Positions 13,307 to 51,300 of a stretch of 64,000 bases of DNA are shown piece after piece (the stretch's first letter is position 1; each line of letters starts with the position of its first letter). The translations under genes and the position numbers were made by a program. The notes beneath the pieces were generated by a model. It saw only the letters and a program-made list of their open reading frames with translations. It did no database searches and had not been told where the DNA came from. The stretch spans positions 98,084,001 through 98,148,000 of the forward strand of contig JANJGN010000012.1 in assembly GCA_026770705.1 (NCBI GenBank), in the 5' to 3' direction. Source of the DNA: Isurus oxyrinchus. Its lineage: Eukaryota.

Positions 13307-13310
13307 GCAA

Positions 13311-13383
13311 TGTTGCGGCCCGGTTTTGAACCAGGAACCTTACGCGTGTTAGGCAAACGTGATAACCACTACACCACAGAAAC
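13311..13383 (-). tRNA. tRNA-Val(AAC)-derived pseudogene
   Basis: GTTTCTGTGGTGTAGTGGTTATCACGTTTGCCTAACACGCGTAAGGTTCCTGGTTCAAAACCGGGCCGCAACA, 73 nt; close to vertebrate tRNA-Val-AAC; acceptor stem mismatched; no CCA. Confidence 0.85.
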
Positions 13384-14149
13384 AGTGCCAAAGATAGTTT
13401 CAAAATCATAATTTTAATAAAAAGTTGCACAGCCAGGGCATGGGTGGGTTAATCACTTGTACTTAATGTTTACTACTGTCAATAAACTCCCAAGAATGTC
13501 ACCTTGCCTATGGCTCCTTGTTCTGATGAGCAGTGTTCATGTCACTCAGATATGAAACCTTGGTTCCTGCACAAGATAAAGGCAGATGTCTCGGACTAGG
13601 GCCTCTTCTTTGTGTAGTGTGTAACCTTCAGACCAAAGTGATGGTCTGGCTTCACATCATTGGACACATTACTGATGCCTGCACCTGGATGTTGCTCATC
13701 ACTGCTGCCAGAATGTCATGGGCAGATATCACATAGTTCCGTCATTCTCTCTGTGGGCTCTCAGCACCTTTGAGGTGAGACTGGTCCCTCATCTCTTCTG
13801 CACCTGTGACTGGTGACACTGTGCTCCTGAAGGGGTCAGGTGATGAAGGCTGCCAAAGGCCCAGATGTGTTTAAAGTTTCACGGTTGCATCTCCATGATA
13901 TGACCCTGATCACAGAGCACAAGTGAGCTGCCCTCAGCCAGAAAAGAGTCAGGCATTCACAGAGGCAATGTGAAGATCTATGGAGTGTCCTCACTGCATA
14001 TCATCATCATCCTCCTGGAATCGAGTGACTATTATGACCTCCACTATGTCTCCATGACATGAGGTTGAGCACTGAGGGTATGTGCACTGCCATCAACACA
14101 CAGGAGTCAAACATTCACAGCTGCAAGGTGAGGACATCAGGACTGTCCT

Positions 14150-36266: not shown

Positions 36267-39200
36267 GATTTGGCCACTTTATCAAAGTGAAATTTGGCTT
36301 TCAGTCGTTGCACTTTGATTTTCACTCTTGTTACTACTTCTGGCTATAGTAGTGTTTTAGCTATTGGAAGAGGAGTCTGAGTGTGGCATGACATTAGTCA
36401 CTGGACTGGACTACTTTCTATGGCTTCAGTAGGTGTATTTCTTCACTCTAAGATTGCCTTGTATACATCATACCGGATCTACACAATTTTTTGATGATCC
36501 CTTTTGCAATTTACACTGCTGCCTTGGCCTTTCCATTTGACTGGCAGTCGTATGGAGATTATGTGGAGTGCTGAATTTCCAATTCTTCATACGTGAAGTG
36601 CCTGAATTCTTCATTCTTGGACTGAGGGCCATTGTTGCTTATCACAATTTCAGGAATGCCATGATAACAGAAGTACGCTTTCAGGCACTCAGTGATCTCA
36701 CTGGCAATCATTGACGTCAGCTTGTCCAATTCCCTGTAGTCTGAATAGTAGTCAACAGTGACGAGATATTCAGTGTCAAAGAGAGTGAAGCGGTTTCTCC
36801 AAGCTTCACCCATGGTCCGTGTAGGAGGTCATGAGTCATAAGCGGCTCTTTAGCTTGCTTAGCTTAATGTTCATTGCAAGCACTGCACTAGCTGATATGG
36901 TCCTTAATCTCATTGCTTTTGTTTGGCCTGTAGAGAGCTTCTCTTGCCTTCCTCAGACTAGACTCGATTCCTTAATGGCTTGCATGGATGTGCATCAACA
37001 TCTCTTTTCTCATCTCCTTTGGGATGATGGCTCTAGTTCCTTTGTACAAAATGCCGTTTTGGGCAGTCATTTCATCTCTGTGTGTACAATACTTTCTTAT
37101 AACAACAGGTGATCCTTGATGGTTTCAGGCGATCTTGTCAGCGCTACTTCCTGTAGCACTTGGAGGGAGGCATCTCGTTGTGTAGTTTGCTTGATCTGAG
37201 CAAGAGGCTTATCTGTTGGATTCAGTGCTTCTACTGGGTGGATGAATTCCAGATCATGTCGTGCCATTGCTTCATGTTGAATCTAGAAGATTTCATACTT
37301 TTTACCAGCATCATCAACTTCCTTCAAAGGGAATGCAGTTCTTGATAGCATGTTGGTGATGTACATCGGCTTCTCTTGCTTCTACTTCACTTTCAGATAT
37401 TATCTCTGCAAACAAGGTAACATCCTTTGCAGATGCTTTGGAGCAGAGAGAAGCTGTTTGAGAAAGATGCCTTTAAGTGGCTTGTGGTCAGACTCTACTG
37501 CCACTTTGTATCTCCAAAACAATAGCCAGATACTCTTTCTCAAATTGGGCATAAGGTCGTTCAATTTGTATTAACGCTCTGGATGCAAACGCAACTGGTT
37601 GTCCTTGGTGCATTAGGGTTGCTCCAAGTCCTGTTTCATTGGTCTCACACTGCAGGATGACTTTGTCATTGACATCATAGCACCTCAGCACTGGGCATTG
37701 TCATCACTAGTTGTTTGATGTGAGTGAAAGCTACTTCTTGATCTGTGCCCCAGAACCTCTGAATATCCTTTGCAGTGAGCTTGTATAGAGGTCACACTCT
37801 GATGACAAATTGGGCAAAATCTTTGCTAGATAGTTCACAAACCCTACAAGTCGTTGAACTGCCTTCACACCTGTTGGTTGTTGCATCTCTGCTAGAGCTC
37901 TCACATTATAAGGATCAAGGCAAAACCTTTTTGCTGTCAGCACATAACCTATGTACTTGACTTCAGCCATCTTCAGTTGTAGTATATTCTTGTTCAGCTT
38001 CAGGTTTATCTGGTGAGCTGTATCCAGCAGTCTCACTGGATTCTGATCATGGTCTGCGATGGCTTCTTCCATTGTATCTCCACATCCATAGATTAACAGA
38101 TAATCCATGAACACTTCCATTCCTGGAAGATCGTTGACTTTCTCATGCTGTTGGTCTTGATAGTCTTACAGAGCAGTAGAAATGTCAAATGGCATGTGCA
38201 ACCATCTGTACCTCCCAAATTGCATCCAGAATGTAGCCAGGAAACTCCTGCTTTTATCCAATTTCACTTACCAGTATCCATCCTTCACATCTATGGTGTT
38301 AAAGACTTTTGCATTGACAAGTTGAGGAAATATTTCTTTAATGGTTGGCATGGGGTAGTAAGACGTTCCAAAGTTTTCTTTTGATCCTTTACAATCCATG
38401 CACACTTTCATGTTTCCAGTTTTTCTTTCATTGTTACAATGCTGCTAATCCAGCCTGTAGGAGTTGTCACTTTCTCAATTACCCTCATCTTTTCAAGCTC
38501 CTCTGTCTTGTCTTTCAGGCTGGACCTGAGGGCAGCTGGAACTCTCTTTGGAAGATCTGTGAAAGCAATTTTGTAATTTGCCAGGATCTGTTCAGTGGTC
38601 AATGACTATTGGTGCCATGCAAAACATGATAAATCTCTTCTGGTACATGAAGGTTACTAGTCCAAGATTTTGAATTATTTCTTTAGTGTCTACTATCTGG
38701 AACTGAGATCTTCTTTCTTCCCATTTCATTGAGCTCTTAGCTTAGTTTGCCCTCTTGGAGTGAGCATCATTCCATCATATAGCCTCAACTTTACCTTCAA
38801 TGGCTTCATTTTCAGATCACATTCTTGAGAAACTTCACACAGGTCTGAGAAGCTCATGATGTTGCATGTAGCAGCAGTGTCTAACTGACACTTCACATTA
38901 ACTCTCCTTCTGCGGCCATCATTCCAATATTCACAAACCATTTTTTAACTTGAAACTTAGTGCCAACCTGTTCTAGGGTATAGAGTGGTTCCTCAGAATC
39001 ATTCCCCAACACCCCTCCAGCAACCATCTTTATAGGCTTGCTTTTCTTCTTTCCAGCTAAACATTTGCATGCAAAGTGATTCAGCTTCTTGCAGTTAGAG
39101 CACTGCTTTCCTCAAATTGGACATATTTCCTTTCCTTTTTGTGTAAGGTGTCCCCTGCAATATTTACATTCAGTACTCTGGCCATGACCTTCTGCTGGCC

Positions 39201-39943
39201 CTTCTGCAAATAATTTTTTTCTCTTTTCCATTGTCTAGTGCTTGGAAGGCCCGAATTTCCTCTCAGCATACTGCAAAGCTTCATCAGTTCTCACATCAAT
39301 ACTTTTCAGATGATGATTAATTACTCAGTGCTTCGACACATGTCAATCGCTTTCTTGAGAGTACGTTTCTTTTCTCTCAGCAGATGTGTTCTCATGGCAG
39401 GATCTGTTGTTTGGGAAAATCCAATCTGAGATCAGTTCTTCAGTTTTTCAAACTCATAAGATTTAGCTAGACATCTCAGTGCAGCAACATACAGATCAAT
39501 ATTCTCCCCCTTTTCTTGAGTTCTGGTATTGAACACATAGCATTCATAAATAACATTAGTAGAGGGTTCAGAGTGGGTCTTCAAGGCCTCCAAAATTTCA
39601 CCAAACTGGCTTTTCTGTTCCTCTATGAGGTCTGGGATGAAATACGGCTTGCAGCACTCATTCCTCTGCACTGATAACAGAGTTGCGACTCTTCTTGGTT
39701 CAAATTTCTTTTTTAAACTCTGACAATTTCATAGTTCTGCAATTGAGACTGGAAAAATTTTCAATTCAGTCTCCAATGTGATTTCTTCTCCATAGGAGCT
39801 GGTTCTGGAAGATTCAAAACTTTACTGATTCACCCAGCAGGCAATGTCCTGTACAAAGTTGCAGACTGAATTTTTATTCTCTGCTGTTTCCTACAGTAGC
39901 TAGTTCTCTTTCAGCTATCAAAATCCACTCAAATTCAATTCCA

Positions 39944-40400: not shown

Positions 40401-43400
40401 TCCAGCTCAATATTTTGGCCACACACCAGGATCACTGCCACCACACCCCTATGTCAAATTTAAATGCCAGGTCAGAATGAATGGAGAATGGCGTGATTCA
40501 CAACTGCTTTTGAAAGTCGTGCAACTGGTCACCTTAACTTTGAGGGGAACTCGGAGGTGAGTTCACACATCTCAGCATAGCGTTGGCGAGGATCCCTGAT
40601 AGGAATGCAAAGTAGTGGTACCATAGATTCCGAGGGGGCAGTCACAGGCAAGTCTCCAAAGCAGTTTCTTTCTAGCTGGCTCTTAGTGTGGGGTTTTGGG
40701 GCAAGGGGGGTGCTAGGCAGCACTGACTGTAAGAAGGGAACCTCGGGGCAAGAGCTCCAATGTGTACGAAGAGTGTGGAAGGTTGCACAACAAACACATG
40801 ACTATGGGGGTTAGAAGTGTTGGCGGAGGGCGGGGGGGGAAAGAAAATAGCCACGCAAATGGAAAAACGGTTCAAAAATGCGGACTCTGCTGCAGCTGAG
40901 ACCGGTTAGCATCAGCTCAATTGACATGCTTGGAGTCAGTCTAGTGAAGCAATTATGTCTACTCAAGCCACACTAATTCCTGAAAGTGCCAATGATTGTT
41001 CCTCTAGTTTTAACACCTCGGGCGGAGACTTCAAAATCAACTGAATGGTATGGAGCAGCAGAACCATTGGACAACTGGATAAACTTGAGGATCCCCTTGA
41101 GAGAAGTGGACAGCACTCCCTGAGGGTATTATGTAGGTTATTGTTATGTAGGCATTGAACGTTCATCCTCCTGGTCCAACAAAACTGCGCAGCCCTTGAG
41201 TGCAGGTTAGGACAATGCTGGCATCTGAGAAGAGACCTCAGGATGCAGTCGAGTGGGTGAAGCTGTCATCACTCCGTCATCTGGGGCAGAATATTTCACT
41301 TGTCGGGCAGATGTGTACCCGACCCGAATGAGCATAAAATGATGCGCGATGACACCAGGCGGGCACCCCGACGTTATCTGCCCACCGGAAAATCCTAGCT
41401 GTGGTGTGGGGCAGAGGTGAGTGGGGTTGTGGTGAACCTTCATGCGCAGCAAACACTGGACAGACATTTGAGGGGGTCTTGAGACGCAGACGCGGGCGAT
41501 GACTTGAGCAAGAGTGGCGCTTAGGAGACAAATGCTGACGCTCATGTCTCTCTCTTTGATACTGCAGTGAAGAGACTATCAGGAAGGTGAAGCCCGGTGA
41601 TTTTGCTGTCCACGTCATTGCCGATAGGCAGTAGATAAAAAGGAGAAGAATGTGACAGAGACGTCTGCTCTCCAAAGGGAGGAGCAGAACCCTCAAAACA
41701 GTTGGGTGGCAAAGGCCTCCTCCGCACACAGCGGATGATCCCCACAGAGCCGTTGTTCGTAGGCACTGTGATGGTGCAAGTGCTACCTGCAGATTAGCGA
41801 GAACCAGTGTTGCCAATGCCTGTGCCTGTCAAGGTAACTGGTCACTCACATATGCCACCTTCTGCAGGATTTGGTGCCATGGGGACTTGGAGGGCATCCA
41901 CTGCCAAGGGCAGTGAAAGTTACCACCATGCTTAATTTCTACAGCAGTGGCTCCTCCCAGGGCTCCACTGGGTACCTATGTGGGATTTTGCAAGTCTCCA
42001 CAAATCTATCCAGGAGGTCACGACACCACTTTTGTCAAAGTACACAACTTTGACAGAGACCAGGTGAGCCAGTAAGCAAGGGTGCTGGGATTTGTTGAGA
42101 TTTCCAGTCTCCCACAGGTGCTGGGTGCCATTGACTGTACTCATGTGGCTCTAAAATCACCCTAGCACCAAGCAGTCCAGTATGTGAACCAAAGGCTTCC
42201 ATTTGTCCAATGTTCAGCTGGTCTGCGGCCATAATAAACGGATCATGCAGGTGTGTGCAAAATACCATGGAAGCATCCACAACTCGTACATTCTCAGCAG
42301 GCCTCAGATCTCTGACATCTTCCAGGGCCACACTGGCTGCAAGGTTGGCTTCTCGGGGACAAGGGATATAAAGGGATATGGCTGATGATGCCCGTGCGGC
42401 GGCCTCAGACATCTGCTGAGGGAATGTAAACGCGGCTCATACCATAACCTGGAGTTTGGTTGAGCACACTACTGGTACCCTGAAAGTGAGGTTCCAGTGC
42501 CTCAGTAGATCTGGCGGAGCACTGCAGTGCACTCCCCAGAGGGTGTCACGCATCATCGGGGCTTGCTGCGTGCTACACATCCTGGCGATGCAAAGTGGGT
42601 AGGACATGGATGATGGGAAGATGGATGTGCTGCACCTTCCCTCTGATGAGGAGGAAGTCAAAGAGGATGAGGGTGATGAGGTCCTGGAAGGTGAGGGTGC
42701 AGGTGATGAGGCCATTGCAGTGGCCAGATGAGGCAGGCGTGCTCGTGAGGCTCTCAATGCCACAAGATTCCAGAAGGATGACGATGAGCTGCAGTGAGGA
42801 CACTCCTGAGATCTTCACATTGCATCTGGGAACGTCTGCCACATGTTCGGCTGAGGGCAGCCCTTGTGAAGAGACTTATATCATGGAAATGTTGCTGAGA
42901 AACAGTGGCCACATGGACTTTAACAGCACTTGATCCTTTGACAGGCTTCATCACCTGTTCTTTTTAGCAGCAGACCTTCACCTGTCAGGAATGGTCTCGA
43001 GATGGGGGTGCAGTCCTGCCTCTAAGGTGCTGTGAGCACACAGAGAACATCGCGGATTCCTGTATGAGATTCTTGCAGCAAATGCAAGCCACACTGAGGC
43101 ACAGGCATCACTGATCTGGGGAGTGACTTTAAAGCCAGATAATTGCTGTGGTCAGGAGGTTACACACTGCACAGGGGAGAGGCCCTGGACTGTGACACTT
43201 GCCTTCATTTTGTGCTGGAACCAAGGTTTCACTTTTGATTGACACGAACATTGCTCATCATAACAAGGAGCCATAGACAAGGAGACATTCTTGGGAGTGT
43301 ATTTACAATTGTGAACATTAAGTACAAGTGATTAACACTCATGGCCACTTTGTATAATTACATTGTCTTGAAGTGGTTATGGTACTGGGTTTGTAACCCC

Positions 43401-44960
43401 AAGATCAAGAGTTCAAATCTCACAATGGCGAACTATGAAACAATGTAACTTCATCTGAGACAGGTGGAAATGGGTTTGTACTCGAAAGAAATCAAGAGTT
43501 CAAATCTCACAATGGCAATCTATGAAATAATGTAACTTCATCTGAATAGCAACAGATGGAAATATGTTTGTACTCAAAAGAGATACAAATTAGGAACACT
43601 TTAGAGGCCTTCCGTGCTCGGTGGGCACCGCGGGGACTGGGGTGTTTTGTTGACCCCTTTAATCACATTTTGATTTAAAGTTTGTAAGTTTCCTTTAAAC
43701 TTTGTTCTTGGTTTTACAGCTGACCTGAATTAGGGGCTGTGCCTGATTTGTCCCGATTTTGTTGATTTGGTTTTCATTTAAAAGATTATCAAGAGTTCAA
43801 ATCTCACAATGGCAAAACTATGAAACAATGTAACTTCATCTGAAACAGATGGAAATGGGTTTGTACTCGAAAGAGTATCAAGAGTTCAAATCTCACAATG
43901 GCAAACTATGAAACAATGTAACTTCATCTGAATAAACAGATGGAAATGGGTTTGTACTCGAAAAGTTACATTGTCTTGACCTTTCTATCCCTGCTGCTAC
44001 TTCTTGGTGCATCCCTGACATCCACAGCAGAGGTGGAAGCAGTCTGTTGACTGCTATGCCCTGTTGTCTGTGATGTCATTGGTGGGTATCCCCTAGAGGG
44101 CCGAGACCTGGAGGGGCCCGGCCTGCTTTCACTGTCCTGCTATGTGGCAGCGCTGGAGCTGCTGGTGTCACAGGAAAAGGGGTTTGGGATTGGCCAGTCA
44201 CTCCTTGAGATACCTGGGTGGATGACCCCGGGGTGTGCACCTGCTGATTCTCCTTCCTACGGGTGCTTGAGGGCCCCTGGCTGACTCCATGAGAGGAAGG
44301 GGCAGCTGGAGGGAGCTCAAGGTGTCCCCACACACTCTTGCATAGACACTGATGGATGCCAGCAAGTGCCCTACTGATGGAGTGTAGCTTCTGCACTAAT
44401 GCAGGACCAATGTCCTGGACCAAGGTCTCCACGGCAGCAGCCACCCTACCAGTGTTGACATCGGTGTGTTGGTATGCCGGCGCTATCACTTTGGTCTGAA
44501 GCCAGACAGACTCTTCCATTGTGCCTTGCAATTTGAAGTGTGCAGCAGACATCCCTTCCTAATGTTCCCGAGCTTGTCTTTGCAGCTCCAGCAACTGAGA
44601 TATCACTGAGTCCAGAGGCTCCTTATCTGAACCGGACTCAGCAGATTCCTGGCCTCCAGCAATTTTCCAAGTGCCGGCACTCTGGGTTGACCCTGCTTCC
44701 TCCAGCTGTGGATCAGACATGGTGATTTGCTCACCAGATTGTGACCCTGAGACTACTCTAGAACTGGGTCCAACTGAGGCATGTCTCTGTGCTGGTGGGG
44801 TGTGGGTGAACGCTGTGACAGGTCTTCAATGTTGGTGTCTTCCTTTGGAGAGTGCTAGCCCTGTGTAGGGGTAGCCTTTAAATATGGGACCCAGATTATT
44901 GAAACTCTGAGGTCATGGTGGGGCAGCAAAATCCGAGTCTGCCCCTCCAGCGATCCAATG
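40400..44960. mobile_element. PIF/Harbinger copy D (transposase + at about 41590-42800; Myb remnant - at about 43360-44860)
   Basis: GAIDCTHV near 42125, NVQLVCGHNKRIMQVCAKYHGSIHNSYIL, GDKG, VEHTTGTLKVRFQC; 41200-41270 matches copy E 50010-50090; a mini-MITE sits at 41284-41400. Confidence 0.85.
43372..43965 (+). mobile_element. tRNA-derived tandem SINE / Tx1-like LINE tail chimera
   Basis: 14-bp TSD TTACATTGTCTTGA at 43358-43371 and 43966-43979; A-box-like AGTGGTTATGG, B-box GAGTTCAAATC; four 87-100-bp units; central NTLEAFRARWAPRGLGCFVDPFNHILI* at 43595-43678. Confidence 0.8.
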
Positions 44961-46920: not shown

Positions 46921-47429
46921 AACAGTACAGTGTACAGTAATCAGTTTCTTAGTAAACTGTAAAGGAAAATAATGCTTCTTAGTGTCCTTGCACCTAAAAA
47001 AAGCTTAATTTTTAAGATCAATCCTGACGACCAACATAACTAGCAGCAACTCATAATAGTGATCAATTCACCCTCTGGCTCTGGCCAATTTAACATAATG
47101 TTCCTTAAATTAGCACAAAGGATCACCAAAACACAATTTGTGCTGGTTGCAATTTGCATTTGAAATTCATCAATATTGCATGCTGGTTTGACCAATTTTG
47201 CTGAAAAAAATAGTGCAACCTAGCAGAAACTCAATATCACGATCTTTTCCATGTCTATTCAATAGTTTTGTAGATAGGGGGAAGTAGCCAAAGAGTATTA
47301 CTATTCAAAATAATAAATATAAATTAAGGCCCTTGTTATCAATTGAGGAATAATTTACTGACAGTCAAACAATGGTTCTTATAATCTTATCTGACTAGTA
47401 TTTGTTTGTATTCTGTCTTGCTTTAAGCA

Positions 47430-48368
47430 CCATCTGAGGTGCTGTTCCTCCAGTTTGCGTTGAGCTTCACTGGAACAATGCAGCAGGCCAAGGACGGACA
47501 TGTGGGCATGAGAGCAGGGTGGAGTGTTAACATGGCAAGCGACAGGGAGGTCTGGGTAATGCTTGCGGACAGACTGAAGGTGTTCTGCAAAGCGGTCGCC
47601 CAGTCTGTGTTTGGTCTCTCCAGTGTAGAGGAAACCGCATTGGGAGCAACGAATGCAGTAGACTAAATTGAGGGAAGTGCAAGTGAAATGCTGCTTTACT
47701 TGAAAGGAGTGTTTGGGCCCTTGGACGGTGAGGAGAGGGGAAGTAAAGGGGCAGGTGTTGCACCTTCTGCGGTTGCATGGGAAGGTGCCTGCTGCTTTGT
47801 TCCAGTGAAGGTCAACACAAACTGGAGGAACAGCACCTCATCTTCCGACTACGAACTTTACAGCCTTCTGGATTGAATATTTTCAACAATTTTAGATCAT
47901 GAACTCTCTCCTCCATTCCCACCCCCTTTCCGATACCTCTCCTTTTTTTCCCAATAATTTATATAGATTTTTCTTTTCCCACCTATTTCCATTATTTTTA
48001 AAAGTATTTCCATCCATTGTTTTATCTCTACCTTTTAGCCTTTTTTGATTCCTTCACCCCACCCCATCCCCACTAAGGCTATCTGTACCTTGCTTGTCCT
48101 GCTTTCTACCCTTAATTAGCACATTCCTTGCATAATATCGCCACCTTCAACACCTCTTTGTCCTTTTGTCTATGACATCTTTAGGCTATCTCCACCTATC
48201 ACTGGCCCTCTATCCAGCTCTACTTGTCCCGTCCCCCCTTAAACCAGCTTATATTTCACCTCTCTTCTACTTTTGCTTGGTTTGTTGAAGAGTCATATGG
48301 ACTCGAAACGTTAACTATGTTCCTCTTCGCAGATGCTGCCAGACCTGCTGAGTTTTTCCAGGTATTTT
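47430..48368. mobile_element. PLE 3' fragment with inverted GIY-YIG segment
   Basis: 47430-47790 (-) matches 56140-56480; 47790-48368 (+) matches the PLE 3' end and pseudo-LTR. Confidence 0.85.
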
Positions 48369-51300
48369 TAAGAAGATGTAATTGCACAGTTGGGCACTTG
48401 TACAGAATGTTGATGATTGTAAATACAAATCATGTCTTCATGTCTATAGCTCCTTGTTATGATGAGCAGTGTTTGTGGAAATCAAATGTAAAACCTTGGT
48501 TCCTGCACAAACTGAAGGCAAGTGTTGCAGTCCAGGGACACTCCCCTGTGCAGTGCGTAACCTCCTGACCACAGTGATTGGCCCATTTCAGAGTCACTCT
48601 CCAGATCAGTGATGCTTGCACCTTGATGTGGATTGCTGTAAGAATCTCATACCCAAGCGTCACAGGGTTCCGTGATATTCTCTGTGAGGTCTCAGCATCT
48701 TAGAGGTGGGACTGCCCCCCCCGCCATCTCGACACCATTCCTGACAGGTGCAGGTGTGGTGCTGAAGGGAACATGGAGCCACGATGATGTGTGACACCCT
48801 CTGGGGAGTGTACTGCAGTTCTCCACCAGATCTGATGAGGAACCTCATTTTTCAGGATCCCAATGGTGTGCTCCACCAAAGTCTGGGTTGCAGCATGAGC
48901 CTCGTTGTACCTTCTCTCAGCAGGAGTCTGAGGCCGCCACACGGGCGTAATCAGCCACATCCGATGTAGGTATCTTTTGTCCACGAAGAGCCAACCCTGC
49001 AGCCTGTGTTTTCCCTGGAAGATGTCAGGGATCTGAGACCTGCTGAGGATGTAAGAGTCATGGACGCTTCCATGGTATCTTGCACACACCTACATGATCT
49101 TTTTGTTGTGGTCGCAGACAGCTGAACATTGAGAGTGTGGAAGACTTTGCGGTTCACATACTGGGCTGCTTGTTGTCAGGGAGATTTAAGAGCCACGTAA
49201 GTCCAGTCAATGGCACCCTGCGGGAATCCGTAATCCTGTGGTAATCTCAGCAAATCCCAGCGCTCTTGTTTCCTGGCTCACCTGATCCCTGTCAAAACTG
49301 ACAAAGTTGTGTACCTTGGCAAAAGTAGCATCCATGACCTCTTTGATGCATTTGTGGGTGGATGCTTGTGAGATCCTGCACAGGTTCCCAGTGGATCCCT
49401 GGAAGGAACCACTGCCATAGAAATTGAGCACGGCAGTAAGTTTCACTGCCACTGGCAGTGGATGTCCTCCGAGTCCCCATGGCGCCAAATCCTGCAGAAG
49501 GTGGCATATGTGAGTGACCAGATCCCTTGACATGTGCAATTGTCGGTGACACTGGTTATTACTCATCTGCAGGTAGCACATGCACTATCTATAGACCCTG
49601 CGTTTAGTGAGGCACCTGTGAATAACAGCTGTCGGGGGTTTAACCTCTGTGTGTGGAGGATGCCATGCCACCCCTTGAACTTGAGAGTTCTGCTCCTGCC
49701 TTTGGTGAGCTAGGTGCCCTTGTCGCATTCTTCTCCTTCTTCTTTCCTGCCTATAGCAATTAGGCGAGATCACCAGACTCCATCTTCCTGATAGCCTCCT
49801 TATTGCAGTATAAAAGAGAGAGACACAAGGGTCAGCAATTGTCTCCTAAGGACCACTCTTGGTCAGGATATCACCTGCGGTTGCCTCTCAAGGCCCCTTA
49901 ATGCATGCCAGAGAGTCCAGTCCACACATCGACGCTCAGTGTTTTGTGTGCATGATGGCTCAACATGCCCACACCCAGCACTGGCCCACACCACATGACT
50001 GAGTGTTGACAGCTTTGGCCACTCGACTGCATTCTGAACTTTCACATTAGGCAAAGCCATTGTCCTAACCTGCATTCTAAGGCTTCAAGGTTTGCTAGTG
50101 CCAAGAGGGTGACTCTTCAATGTCAACATAAACATAATGCAAGAGATTAGGAGCTCATCCCTCCGTCAGTGTTCCATGGCCACCTTTCCCAAAGGGAACC
50201 TCAAGCTTGGCCAGTTGCCCAATAGTTCTGTAGCACCATAGCTCTCATTCGATTTTGAAGTGTATGCAGGATGGGGTTAAAAGTAGAGGAGCAGCATTGG
50301 CACTCTCAGGAATTAGTGCTGCTTGAGTGGGTACTGTTGTTTGACTATCCTCACTCTAGGCATGTCAATGGAGTCAAGCTAGATGGTCTCAGCTGCAGAA
50401 GAGTGTTCAACTTCGACATGTTTTTCCATTTGCCTGGCTGTTTTCTTACCCCCATACCCTGACATGTCTTAGTGTGCAACCTTCATTCTGTGCTGCCATC
50501 ACCCCCCCACCCCCCCCCCACCCCCCCATGCACTGTTGCCCTAGCCCTGAGGCCCCATCTCTCCAGCACTGTTGCCCTAGCCCTGAGGTCCCCTTCTCTC
50601 CGGCACTTTTACCCTAGCCCTGAGTCCCCATCTCTCTGGCACTGTTGCCCGAGCCCTGAGGTTCCATTCTCTCTGGCACTGTTGCCCTAGCCCTGAGACC
50701 CCATCTCTCCGGCACTGTTGCTCTAGCCTTGAGTCCCCGTCTCTCCGACACTGTTGCCTTAGCCCTGAGTCCCCATCTCTCTGGCACTGTTGCCCAAGCC
50801 CTAAGGTCCCCTTCTCTCCAGCACTGTTGCCCTAGCTCTGAGTCCCCATCTCTCCGGCACTGTTGCCCTAGCCCTGAGGCTCCCTTCTCTCCATCATTGT
50901 TGCCTGAGCCCTGAGGTTCCAATCTCCCTGGCACTATTGCCCGAGGCCTGAGGCTCCCTTCTCTCTGGCACTGTTGCCCTATCCCTGAGGTCCCCTTCTC
51001 TCTAGCACTGTTGGCTGAGCCCTGGCACTACAAGCTAGCCATAAAGAAGCTGCTGTGGTGACTTGCCTGTGAAATCCCTGAATCCACTTCCTTGCATTGA
51101 GATCCTCGTGAGCACTGTGCTAAATTGTGTGCATTCAGTAAAGGCAGTTGTAAATCATACTGTTTAAAATCATGCCAATGTGGGATTAAAATTTGATGTG
51201 GGGGGTGATTCCAGAGTGTGGAAACAAGAATGAATTGCAAATGTATTTAAATTAAATTCCTGATGCCCGATGACGGGAAATGTGGTTCTCCATTTATCAG

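Follow-up and report, generated by a model that had tools for sequence, protein, structure and literature searches.

A Tx1-clade LINE located mostly at one site of a tRNA-derived SINE, and a composite insertion in Isurus oxyrinchus

How can a single insertion come to hold pieces of several retrotransposon copies? The question is raised by a 64,000-nucleotide stretch of Isurus oxyrinchus DNA, here called the window (assembly GCA_026770705.1, contig JANJGN010000012.1, positions 98,084,001 to 98,148,000 of the forward strand), in which one exact 14-bp target-site duplication (TSD) encloses 594 bp of mixed origin (43372-43965): the 5'-clipped head of a tRNA-derived short interspersed element (SINE), four head-less units and 191 bp from the 3' end of a long interspersed element (LINE). 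We consider it likely that this LINE, LINE-B in the following, inserts mostly at one site in a tRNA-derived SINE that it likely mobilises, and that the 594-bp element is a SINE copy that was targeted again and filled by template switching. The genome searched is the 4.98-Gb assembly, in which the window lies on contig 12; C1, C30 and C37 denote contigs 1, 30 and 37.

Parts of the composite insertion

Within the window, the locus is composed as follows.

43358-43371, + strand: left TSD, 14 bp, a TACA-class site within a repeat found next to other copies as well
43372-43403, + strand: tRNA-derived SINE head, 5'-truncated by about 18 nt, with an A-box-like stretch (43374-43383) and an anticodon-loop equivalent (43390-43396, TGT by position)
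43404-43490, + strand: unit 1, SINE positions 51-137, opening at the ATCA target site; B-box at 43409-43419
43491-43582, + strand: unit 2, with rare variants common to the copy at C30:23687294 and a 36-mer found at 3 places genome-wide
43583-43604, + strand: foreign spacer, equal to the 3' flank of the C30 copy with one mismatch; likely read-through RNA
43597-43604, + strand: spacer-LINE overlap, an imperfect microhomology to the LINE
43597-43787, + strand: 3' end of a Tx1-clade LINE (young ATCA-class LINE-B), with the C-terminus of open reading frame 2 (ORF2), stop codon (43676-43678) and 3' untranslated region
43788-43876, + strand: unit 3, joined to the LINE 3' end at the ATCA site
43877-43965, + strand: unit 4, terminal, its last ~18 nt matching the LINE-A 3' end; probably the resident SINE body
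43966-43979, + strand: right TSD, an exact copy of the left 14 bp

The TSD and the four unit starts had already been recognized in a first-pass annotation made from the letters alone, and both hold: an identical 20-mer opens the units at 43404, 43491, 43788 and 43877 (0 mismatches, 0.01 expected by chance). The same is true of the motif AAAGA, which sits 1 nt (unit 1) or 2 nt (LINE tail, unit 3) upstream of ATCAAGAG. That annotation also described a dimer of dimers with units 1 and 3, and 2 and 4, most alike, which the substitution counts contradict: units 3 and 4 are the closest pair with 0 mismatches, against 4 for units 1 and 3 and 4 for units 2 and 4. These latter pairs are alike merely in the absence or presence of an insertion, and the insertions of units 2 and 4 represent different genome-wide subtypes. 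The peptide assigned to the LINE tail is partly retained. A reading frame from 43583 does give ...TLEAFRARWAPRGLGCFVDPFNHILI* up to the stop codon, but LINE homology begins only at about 43597-43604, extending over 191 bp with 97.4% identity to a full-length copy; the 'N' of NTLEAF is G in full-length LINE copies, and the first residues belong to the foreign spacer.

Using the head plus unit 1 as query, we obtained 1,167 first-look candidates and scored 40 of them. Full SINE copies are 137 bp long and start about 18 nt upstream of the start of the head in the window, and what we call a unit corresponds to SINE positions 51-137, opening just before the B-box. Pairwise identity among 13 SINEs is 0.94. 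The proposal of a tRNA-like head stands for the family; for the clipped head in the window, Rfam (chance hits only) and ARAGORN give no tRNA call. Full-length heads elsewhere score as tRNA: one copy fits the Rfam tRNA model with 22.6 bits, below the gathering threshold of 29, and array loci hold 24 further matches of 29-37 bits, those checked being at SINE head positions. By Rfam model position the anticodon is TGT, and we take the head to resemble tRNA-Thr. A genome pattern search for a parent tRNA-Thr gene found none, its 70 matches being nearly all SINE variants, and ARAGORN detected no tRNA in the 5 non-SINE matches retrieved. With a tRNA head carrying A and B boxes, dispersed copies with variable TSDs and a tail shared with a LINE, the family is a tRNA-derived SINE (SINE2); since its head is tRNA-like and not derived from U1 or U2, it does not belong to the SINEU class.

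Target sites of the LINE and the SINE

The full-length LINE measures 7.1 kb and encodes ORF1 and an ORF2 with an apurinic-type endonuclease (APE) followed by a reverse transcriptase (RT); Exo_endo_phos (PF03372) and RVT_1 (PF00078) are both detected above curated cut-offs. In UniRef, ORF2 shares 54% identity over 90% of the query with the Xenopus Tx1 149 kDa protein, other top matches being mostly unnamed turtle proteins, and the C-terminal part that ends in the window peptide shares 42% with Tx1. These similarities support assignment to the Tx1 clade, which had initially been suggested from motif recall.

The first-pass annotation proposed that this LINE targets the SINE just upstream of its B-box, and the junctions bear this out. 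We searched the genome for exact matches to the last 22 bases of LINE-B and looked for TCAAGAGTTCA within 6 nt downstream: 1,852 of 2,671 3' ends (69%) are followed by the SINE target site. In the first 100 ends listed on C1, which fall into 63 merged regions and include tandem duplicates, the 12-mer site is present with at most two substitutions at 87 and ATCA at 97; 77 continue into a unit and 8 into the 5' end of another LINE with no unit. Most LINE-B 3' ends thus lie at SINE position 51, a preference above the 20%-of-flanks criterion stated in a passage of PMC4494074. Downstream units (n = 78) fall into six subtypes of 37, 15, 12, 7, 4 and 3 copies, as insertion into many different resident SINEs would give; a mix of this kind could also come from several master LINEs. 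SINE sequence is found within 70 nt upstream of 53 of 78 truncated LINE-B copies, in keeping with insertion into a resident SINE, and one locus (L047) displays a SINE head, a duplicated site and a truncated LINE. The 12-mer precedes 17 of 18 full-length LINE-B copies, a tally that excludes 4 copies with alignments broken in 5' repeats. Away from SINEs, the nine listed ATCA-class TSD pairs show a bare LINE-B end abutting a non-SINE site, each with its own TSD of 13-16 bp from ATCA. Head-to-tail tandems of full-length LINE-B with only the 12-bp site between them occur at 97.19-97.21 Mb and 46.21-46.23 Mb of C1, and tandem neighbours on this contig are up to 99.8% identical.

The SINE itself uses two sites. 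Exact matches to its 3' end number at least 18,543 in the genome, all counts being lower bounds; at least 14,251 are followed by GTTACA and at least 4,292 by the ATCAAGAGTTCA site, that is, SINE into SINE. TACA is therefore the main landing site of the SINE, often as a Harbinger-flank site, and was overlooked in the first-pass annotation. The insertion of the SINE into its own copies, claimed there, is confirmed by the junctions at the site; its mobilisation by LINE-B is probable. Among 656 SINE ends from the retrieved loci, a sample enriched in arrays, 200 run into the site, 27 into other ATCA sequence, 411 into GTTAC and 18 into other sequence. A G-variant of the SINE is nearly confined to the position-51 site (94 unit, 2 TACA, 7 other), with six subtypes among the units downstream of it (n = 59), and other variants are nearly confined to TACA (115 versus 2; 60 versus 2). 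SINE sublineages would thus each be locked to one target class. Every position-51 insertion leaves the site intact on its 3' side, and one locus (L004) contains full SINEs inserted with a duplicated site.

A second LINE 3' end, LINE-A, was overlooked as well, and is the better match to the SINE tail: the last ~18 nt of the SINE give an end-anchored match to LINE-A and a weaker one to LINE-B. It has 38 exact matches and 931 by a looser pattern. In 40 copies chosen from the C1 list, passing over tandem neighbours, all 40 ends are followed by TTA(C/T/A) and none by ATCA, and 28 fit the Harbinger-site flank motif under a loose rule. Pairwise identity of the tails is 0.89 within LINE-A (15 copies), 0.965 within LINE-B (54 copies, 400 pairs) and 0.905 between them. 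The SINE thus shares its tail with an older sister subfamily that uses TACA sites. The 5' end of LINE-B retains ten bases of the older, LINE-A type target, which suggests that LINE-B arose from an A-type copy that had landed inside a SINE. Among three LINE-A-type copies that reach the endonuclease domain, one of them distant, no clear difference from LINE-B was found; in the presumed hairpin loop, placed by analogy to a passage of PMC1950540, two of the three equal LINE-B. At 28.19-28.21 Mb of C1, LINE-A 3' ends are repeated in tandem about every 431 bp, with 17 listed matches to the pattern.

A run of four T residues (T4) terminates transcription by RNA polymerase III (Pol III). The SINE lacks such a run, so Pol III would run on from it into the flank. 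Contigs of public runs presumed to be RNA cover SINE and LINE parts, display no transcript starts or ends, and in no case span the locus.

Assembly of the arrays and competing explanations

The spacer offers the most direct view of how the insertion was assembled. Its motif (43577-43596) matches four genomic places, and in two of these, the window and C30:23687357, it adjoins a SINE end. Units 1 and 2 plus spacer differ from the C30 copy by 5 mismatches over about 172 nt, including the 36-mer found at just 3 places, and the C30 copy has no LINE downstream. Nor do separate insertions at the outer site account for the spacer, which differs from the local TSD. The simplest reading of the join of unit 2, spacer and LINE, and a likely one, is a jump from LINE RNA to SINE read-through RNA.

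From these junctions we infer the following order of events. A SINE would have landed at a TACA site, creating the 14-bp TSD, and SINE RNA and LINE-B RNA would then have primed at its position 51. The LINE cDNA would have halted after about 190 nt and jumped to a two-unit SINE read-through RNA of the C30 lineage, after which the cDNA would have been joined to the resident head via the shared ATCAAGAGTTCA. The incoming unit would bring its own B-box, and together with the resident A-box this would preserve the Pol III promoter, so that arrays would go on feeding RNA. A loosely specific endonuclease, together with pairing of the RNA read-through tail with the nicked strand, likely determines the target class; in line with RNA-target pairing, the final piece of five clusters is a 3'-truncated SINE that overlaps the start of the TSD with its last bases. 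The near identity of the LINE-A and LINE-B endonucleases, judged on three older copies, means that the switch of target may be RNA-guided. More speculatively, and as a possibility we hold only tentatively, a Tx1 LINE would have switched target with its endonuclease unchanged: it would have landed in its partner SINE, pairing of the RNA tail, best with SINE copies, would have made the target heritable, and the SINE would regenerate site and promoter with each self-insertion, giving a LINE-SINE feedback loop.

The sampled clusters, enriched in LINEs, show the same kind of composition. Of 100 closed clusters, 55 have a detectable TSD of variable length (13-18 bp), and in 20 of these 55 a single TSD encloses both a SINE head and a LINE end. 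Arrays contain up to 19 pieces, some through re-insertion or later duplication. U6 and tRNA-Lys, -Asp, -Val and -Ser with leaders and trailers lie inside SINE arrays (L025:2633-2739; L019, L025, L171, L216), the trailer of one tRNA-Val ending in TTTT immediately before a SINE head, and U4 lies upstream of a full-length LINE-A (L244:1464-1623). A 67-nt stretch of a SINE-free locus (C37:14311177, L215), bounded by a TACA-class and an ATCA-class site, recurs in three arrays (L212, L213, L214), twice lying between SINE units and once in truncated form; it may represent a polymorphic or lost source insertion or a captured host RNA. Multi-unit pieces do travel as RNA, as the C30-shared block and these arrays illustrate. 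Units flanking a truncated LINE are at least 3 changes apart in 24 of 31 cases, and for this reason a long TSD was rejected as the general origin of the extra unit before truncated LINEs. Arrays also enlarge through DNA duplication and through re-insertion at a TSD that has been regenerated. Higher-order periods, among them about 2 kb in L003 and 504 bp in L009, were seen in the multi-kb SINE arrays at L003, L009/L010, L019/L020 and L030; these periods reflect later duplication at the DNA level. The same SINE-spacer-LINE junction occurs at C1:96245503 and 98879858, 2.6 Mb apart with different downstream sequence, possibly a composite that spread.

Several observations weigh against SINE targeting with template switching. 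No TSD was detected in 45 of the 100 closed clusters. The C30 copy has neither head nor TSD within 20 kb upstream and may be a sibling instead of the source. T-runs before internal heads, as Pol III terminators would leave, are weakly enriched (64/204 versus 9/51, p = 0.058), and TSD mismatches show no bias toward overwriting by the RNA (5 versus 6). The presumed hairpin loop of one LINE-A endonuclease, among the three compared, departs from that of LINE-B at two residues. The 12-mer at the 5' end of full-length LINE-B may be the 5' end of the LINE RNA and not a TSD, two cases following a partial unit, and the 100 ends on C1 are not independent. At L051, the LINE and about 32 nt of a unit moved together under their own TSD; LINE RNA thus reads into the unit, and some LINE-unit junctions are inherited.

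This last case also speaks for an account that dispenses with SINE targeting, in which LINE-B once landed in a SINE, the unit is a transduced 3' tail, and RNAs of LINE plus unit prime at TACA and add SINE RNAs 5' in one event. In most composites the last piece is indeed a unit with a TACA-class TSD behind it, read-through would meet no T4 run in the SINE, and several master LINEs in different SINEs could produce mixed subtypes. We nevertheless regard it as rather unlikely: none of the 55 TSD-bounded clusters consists of LINE-B plus a whole unit with a TACA TSD directly at the LINE 5' break, while bare LINE-B ends at ATCA sites do have direct TSDs, 8 of the 100 ends are followed by a further LINE and lack a unit, and 53 of 78 truncated copies have a SINE within 70 nt upstream. 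A further alternative, that the array was assembled once elsewhere and the entire 594-bp block retrotransposes, corresponds to the claim of the first-pass annotation that the array moves as a unit. The single outer TSD, the recurrence of one SINE-spacer-LINE junction at the two C1 loci and the two-unit block common to the window and C30 would agree with it, but the spacer is joined to a SINE end only at the window and C30, where the LINE is missing; none of the other copies of the unit-2 36-mer has the structure of the window, searches with the spacer motif and this 36-mer found no second copy of the whole array in the genome, and Pol III would terminate in the LINE tail, which contains five T4 runs. 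Movement of the complete block is thus very improbable.

The same targeting system could also operate with ligation of the pieces at the RNA stage, ahead of reverse transcription, in place of template jumps; for human U6-L1 chimeras, RtcB-type ligation has reportedly been proposed. In its favour are complete U6 and pre-tRNA copies, trailers included, that are fused end to end with SINE heads, and 9 of 16 3'-clipped SINE pieces before a LINE that stop at the two TTT runs of the SINE (scored by eye and post hoc, two sharing a junction). The imperfect microhomology at the spacer-LINE junction in the window, and the extra G or A bases before many heads, fit cDNA-level jumps, and we judge ligation unlikely. 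Finally, least probable of these explanations is a SINE-derived satellite enlarged by unequal exchange or slippage, with a LINE fragment present by chance. Such satellites are known in squamates (a passage of PMC10702118), long arrays carry the higher-order periods at L003 and L009, and of the 31 unit pairs that flank a LINE, 7 are nearly identical, where the baseline is 2%. In place of long homogeneous arrays we find heterogeneous units, foreign spacers, and LINE and small-RNA pieces; the units at this locus differ in subtype and origin, their boundaries are an insertion site also used outside SINEs with TSDs, and foreign RNAs lie within arrays. The C30 match largely refutes a satellite origin at this locus, leaving DNA-level duplication as a secondary process in multi-kb arrays. 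The variable TSDs likewise agree with the first-pass view that the array is no static satellite.

Precedents, significance and surroundings of the locus

The comparisons below draw on individual passages of the papers cited. The closest precedent is found in crocodilians, where SINEU and Tx1-Mar LINEs share a preferred site in a DNA transposon (Kojima 2015, PMC4494074). As here, SINEU tandem copies sandwich a TSD and small-RNA sequence is added 5' by template switch, and Tx1-9_AMi prefers Harbinger elements. Unlike the SINE studied here, with its tRNA head and LINE-shared tail, SINEU has heads derived from U1 or U2, and no LINE was found with the SINEU-1 3' end; the passages considered describe neither a Tx1 family directed at its own SINE nor a SINE with a fixed insertion site within its own copies. 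Xenopus Tx1L, with 54% ORF2 identity, similarly inserts sequence-specifically into a mobile element, Tx1D (PMC4494074, PMC1950540); Tx1D is a DNA transposon, and endonuclease specificity was shown there, whereas here near-identical endonucleases go with two target classes. Keno (U2 snRNA) and Kibi and Koshi (microsatellites) illustrate the preference of the clade for multicopy sequence (PMC4494074), yet their targets are host genes or simple repeats and not an element multiplied by the LINE itself. Several RNAs under one TSD are known from the WEIRD/Mg-SINE/MGL chimera of Magnaporthe (PMC2104539) and from mammalian snRNA-L1 chimeras (PMC4494074); the fungal genome provides one tripartite case, whereas composites are routine here, at 20 among 55 TSD-bounded clusters of the LINE-enriched sample. 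For SART1Bm, the proposal is that target-like bases in the 3' part of the RNA anneal with the nicked strand and determine the internal priming sites (PMC7265360), in that case for a telomeric target and tested by assay, where we argue from genomic junctions.

The endonuclease is usually held responsible for where APE-type LINEs insert (PMC4494074), and the Tx1 passages of a SINE-LINE survey (PMC3747384) name no Tx1-partnered SINE. In the open literature we found no report of a Tx1 LINE that targets its partner SINE; the search did not extend to Repbase, Dfam and subscription journals, where the families may already be named. All ingredients, namely Tx1 targeting, TSD-sandwiched SINE tandems and template-switch chimeras, have precedents, and their combination was not found in the literature searched. 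A LINE that targets the SINE it multiplies would have an expanding target, as opposed to fixed rDNA, snRNA or DNA-transposon targets, and if the feedback loop were true, the parasite would make its own safe landing sites. The system would likewise offer a route from dispersed SINEs to tandem arrays through retrotransposition itself. With subfamilies about 90% alike in DNA, one using TACA and the other ATCA, LINE-A and LINE-B form a natural pair for gauging the contribution of the RNA tail to target choice, which bears on retrotransposon-based targeted insertion.

Two features in the surroundings concern the outer target site.

42185-42578, + strand: broken DDE_Tnp_4 (Harbinger-type) transposase remnant, about 0.8 kb upstream of the insertion
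43980-44300, strand not assigned: right flank repeat, also flanking insertions at L004, L005, L135 and L244 (68-83% identity, both flanks)

By proximity, the flanks of the insertion would belong to the Harbinger element of the upstream remnant. A second broken DDE_Tnp_4 (Harbinger-type) transposase remnant lies at 48700-49584 on the minus strand. At 13310-13384 (minus strand) ARAGORN calls a tRNA-Val(AAC), a candidate gene or SINE head. Fragments at 47379-47837 of the window and at L114:1-1350 presumably represent Penelope-type GIY-YIG elements, and one Penelope-like fragment adjoins the clipped 5' end of the C30 SINE copy. Broken reading frames at 37731-39728 (minus strand) are what we take to be gag and RT of a long terminal repeat (LTR) retroelement, and a minisatellite with 13.5 copies of a 37-bp unit occupies 50530-51024.

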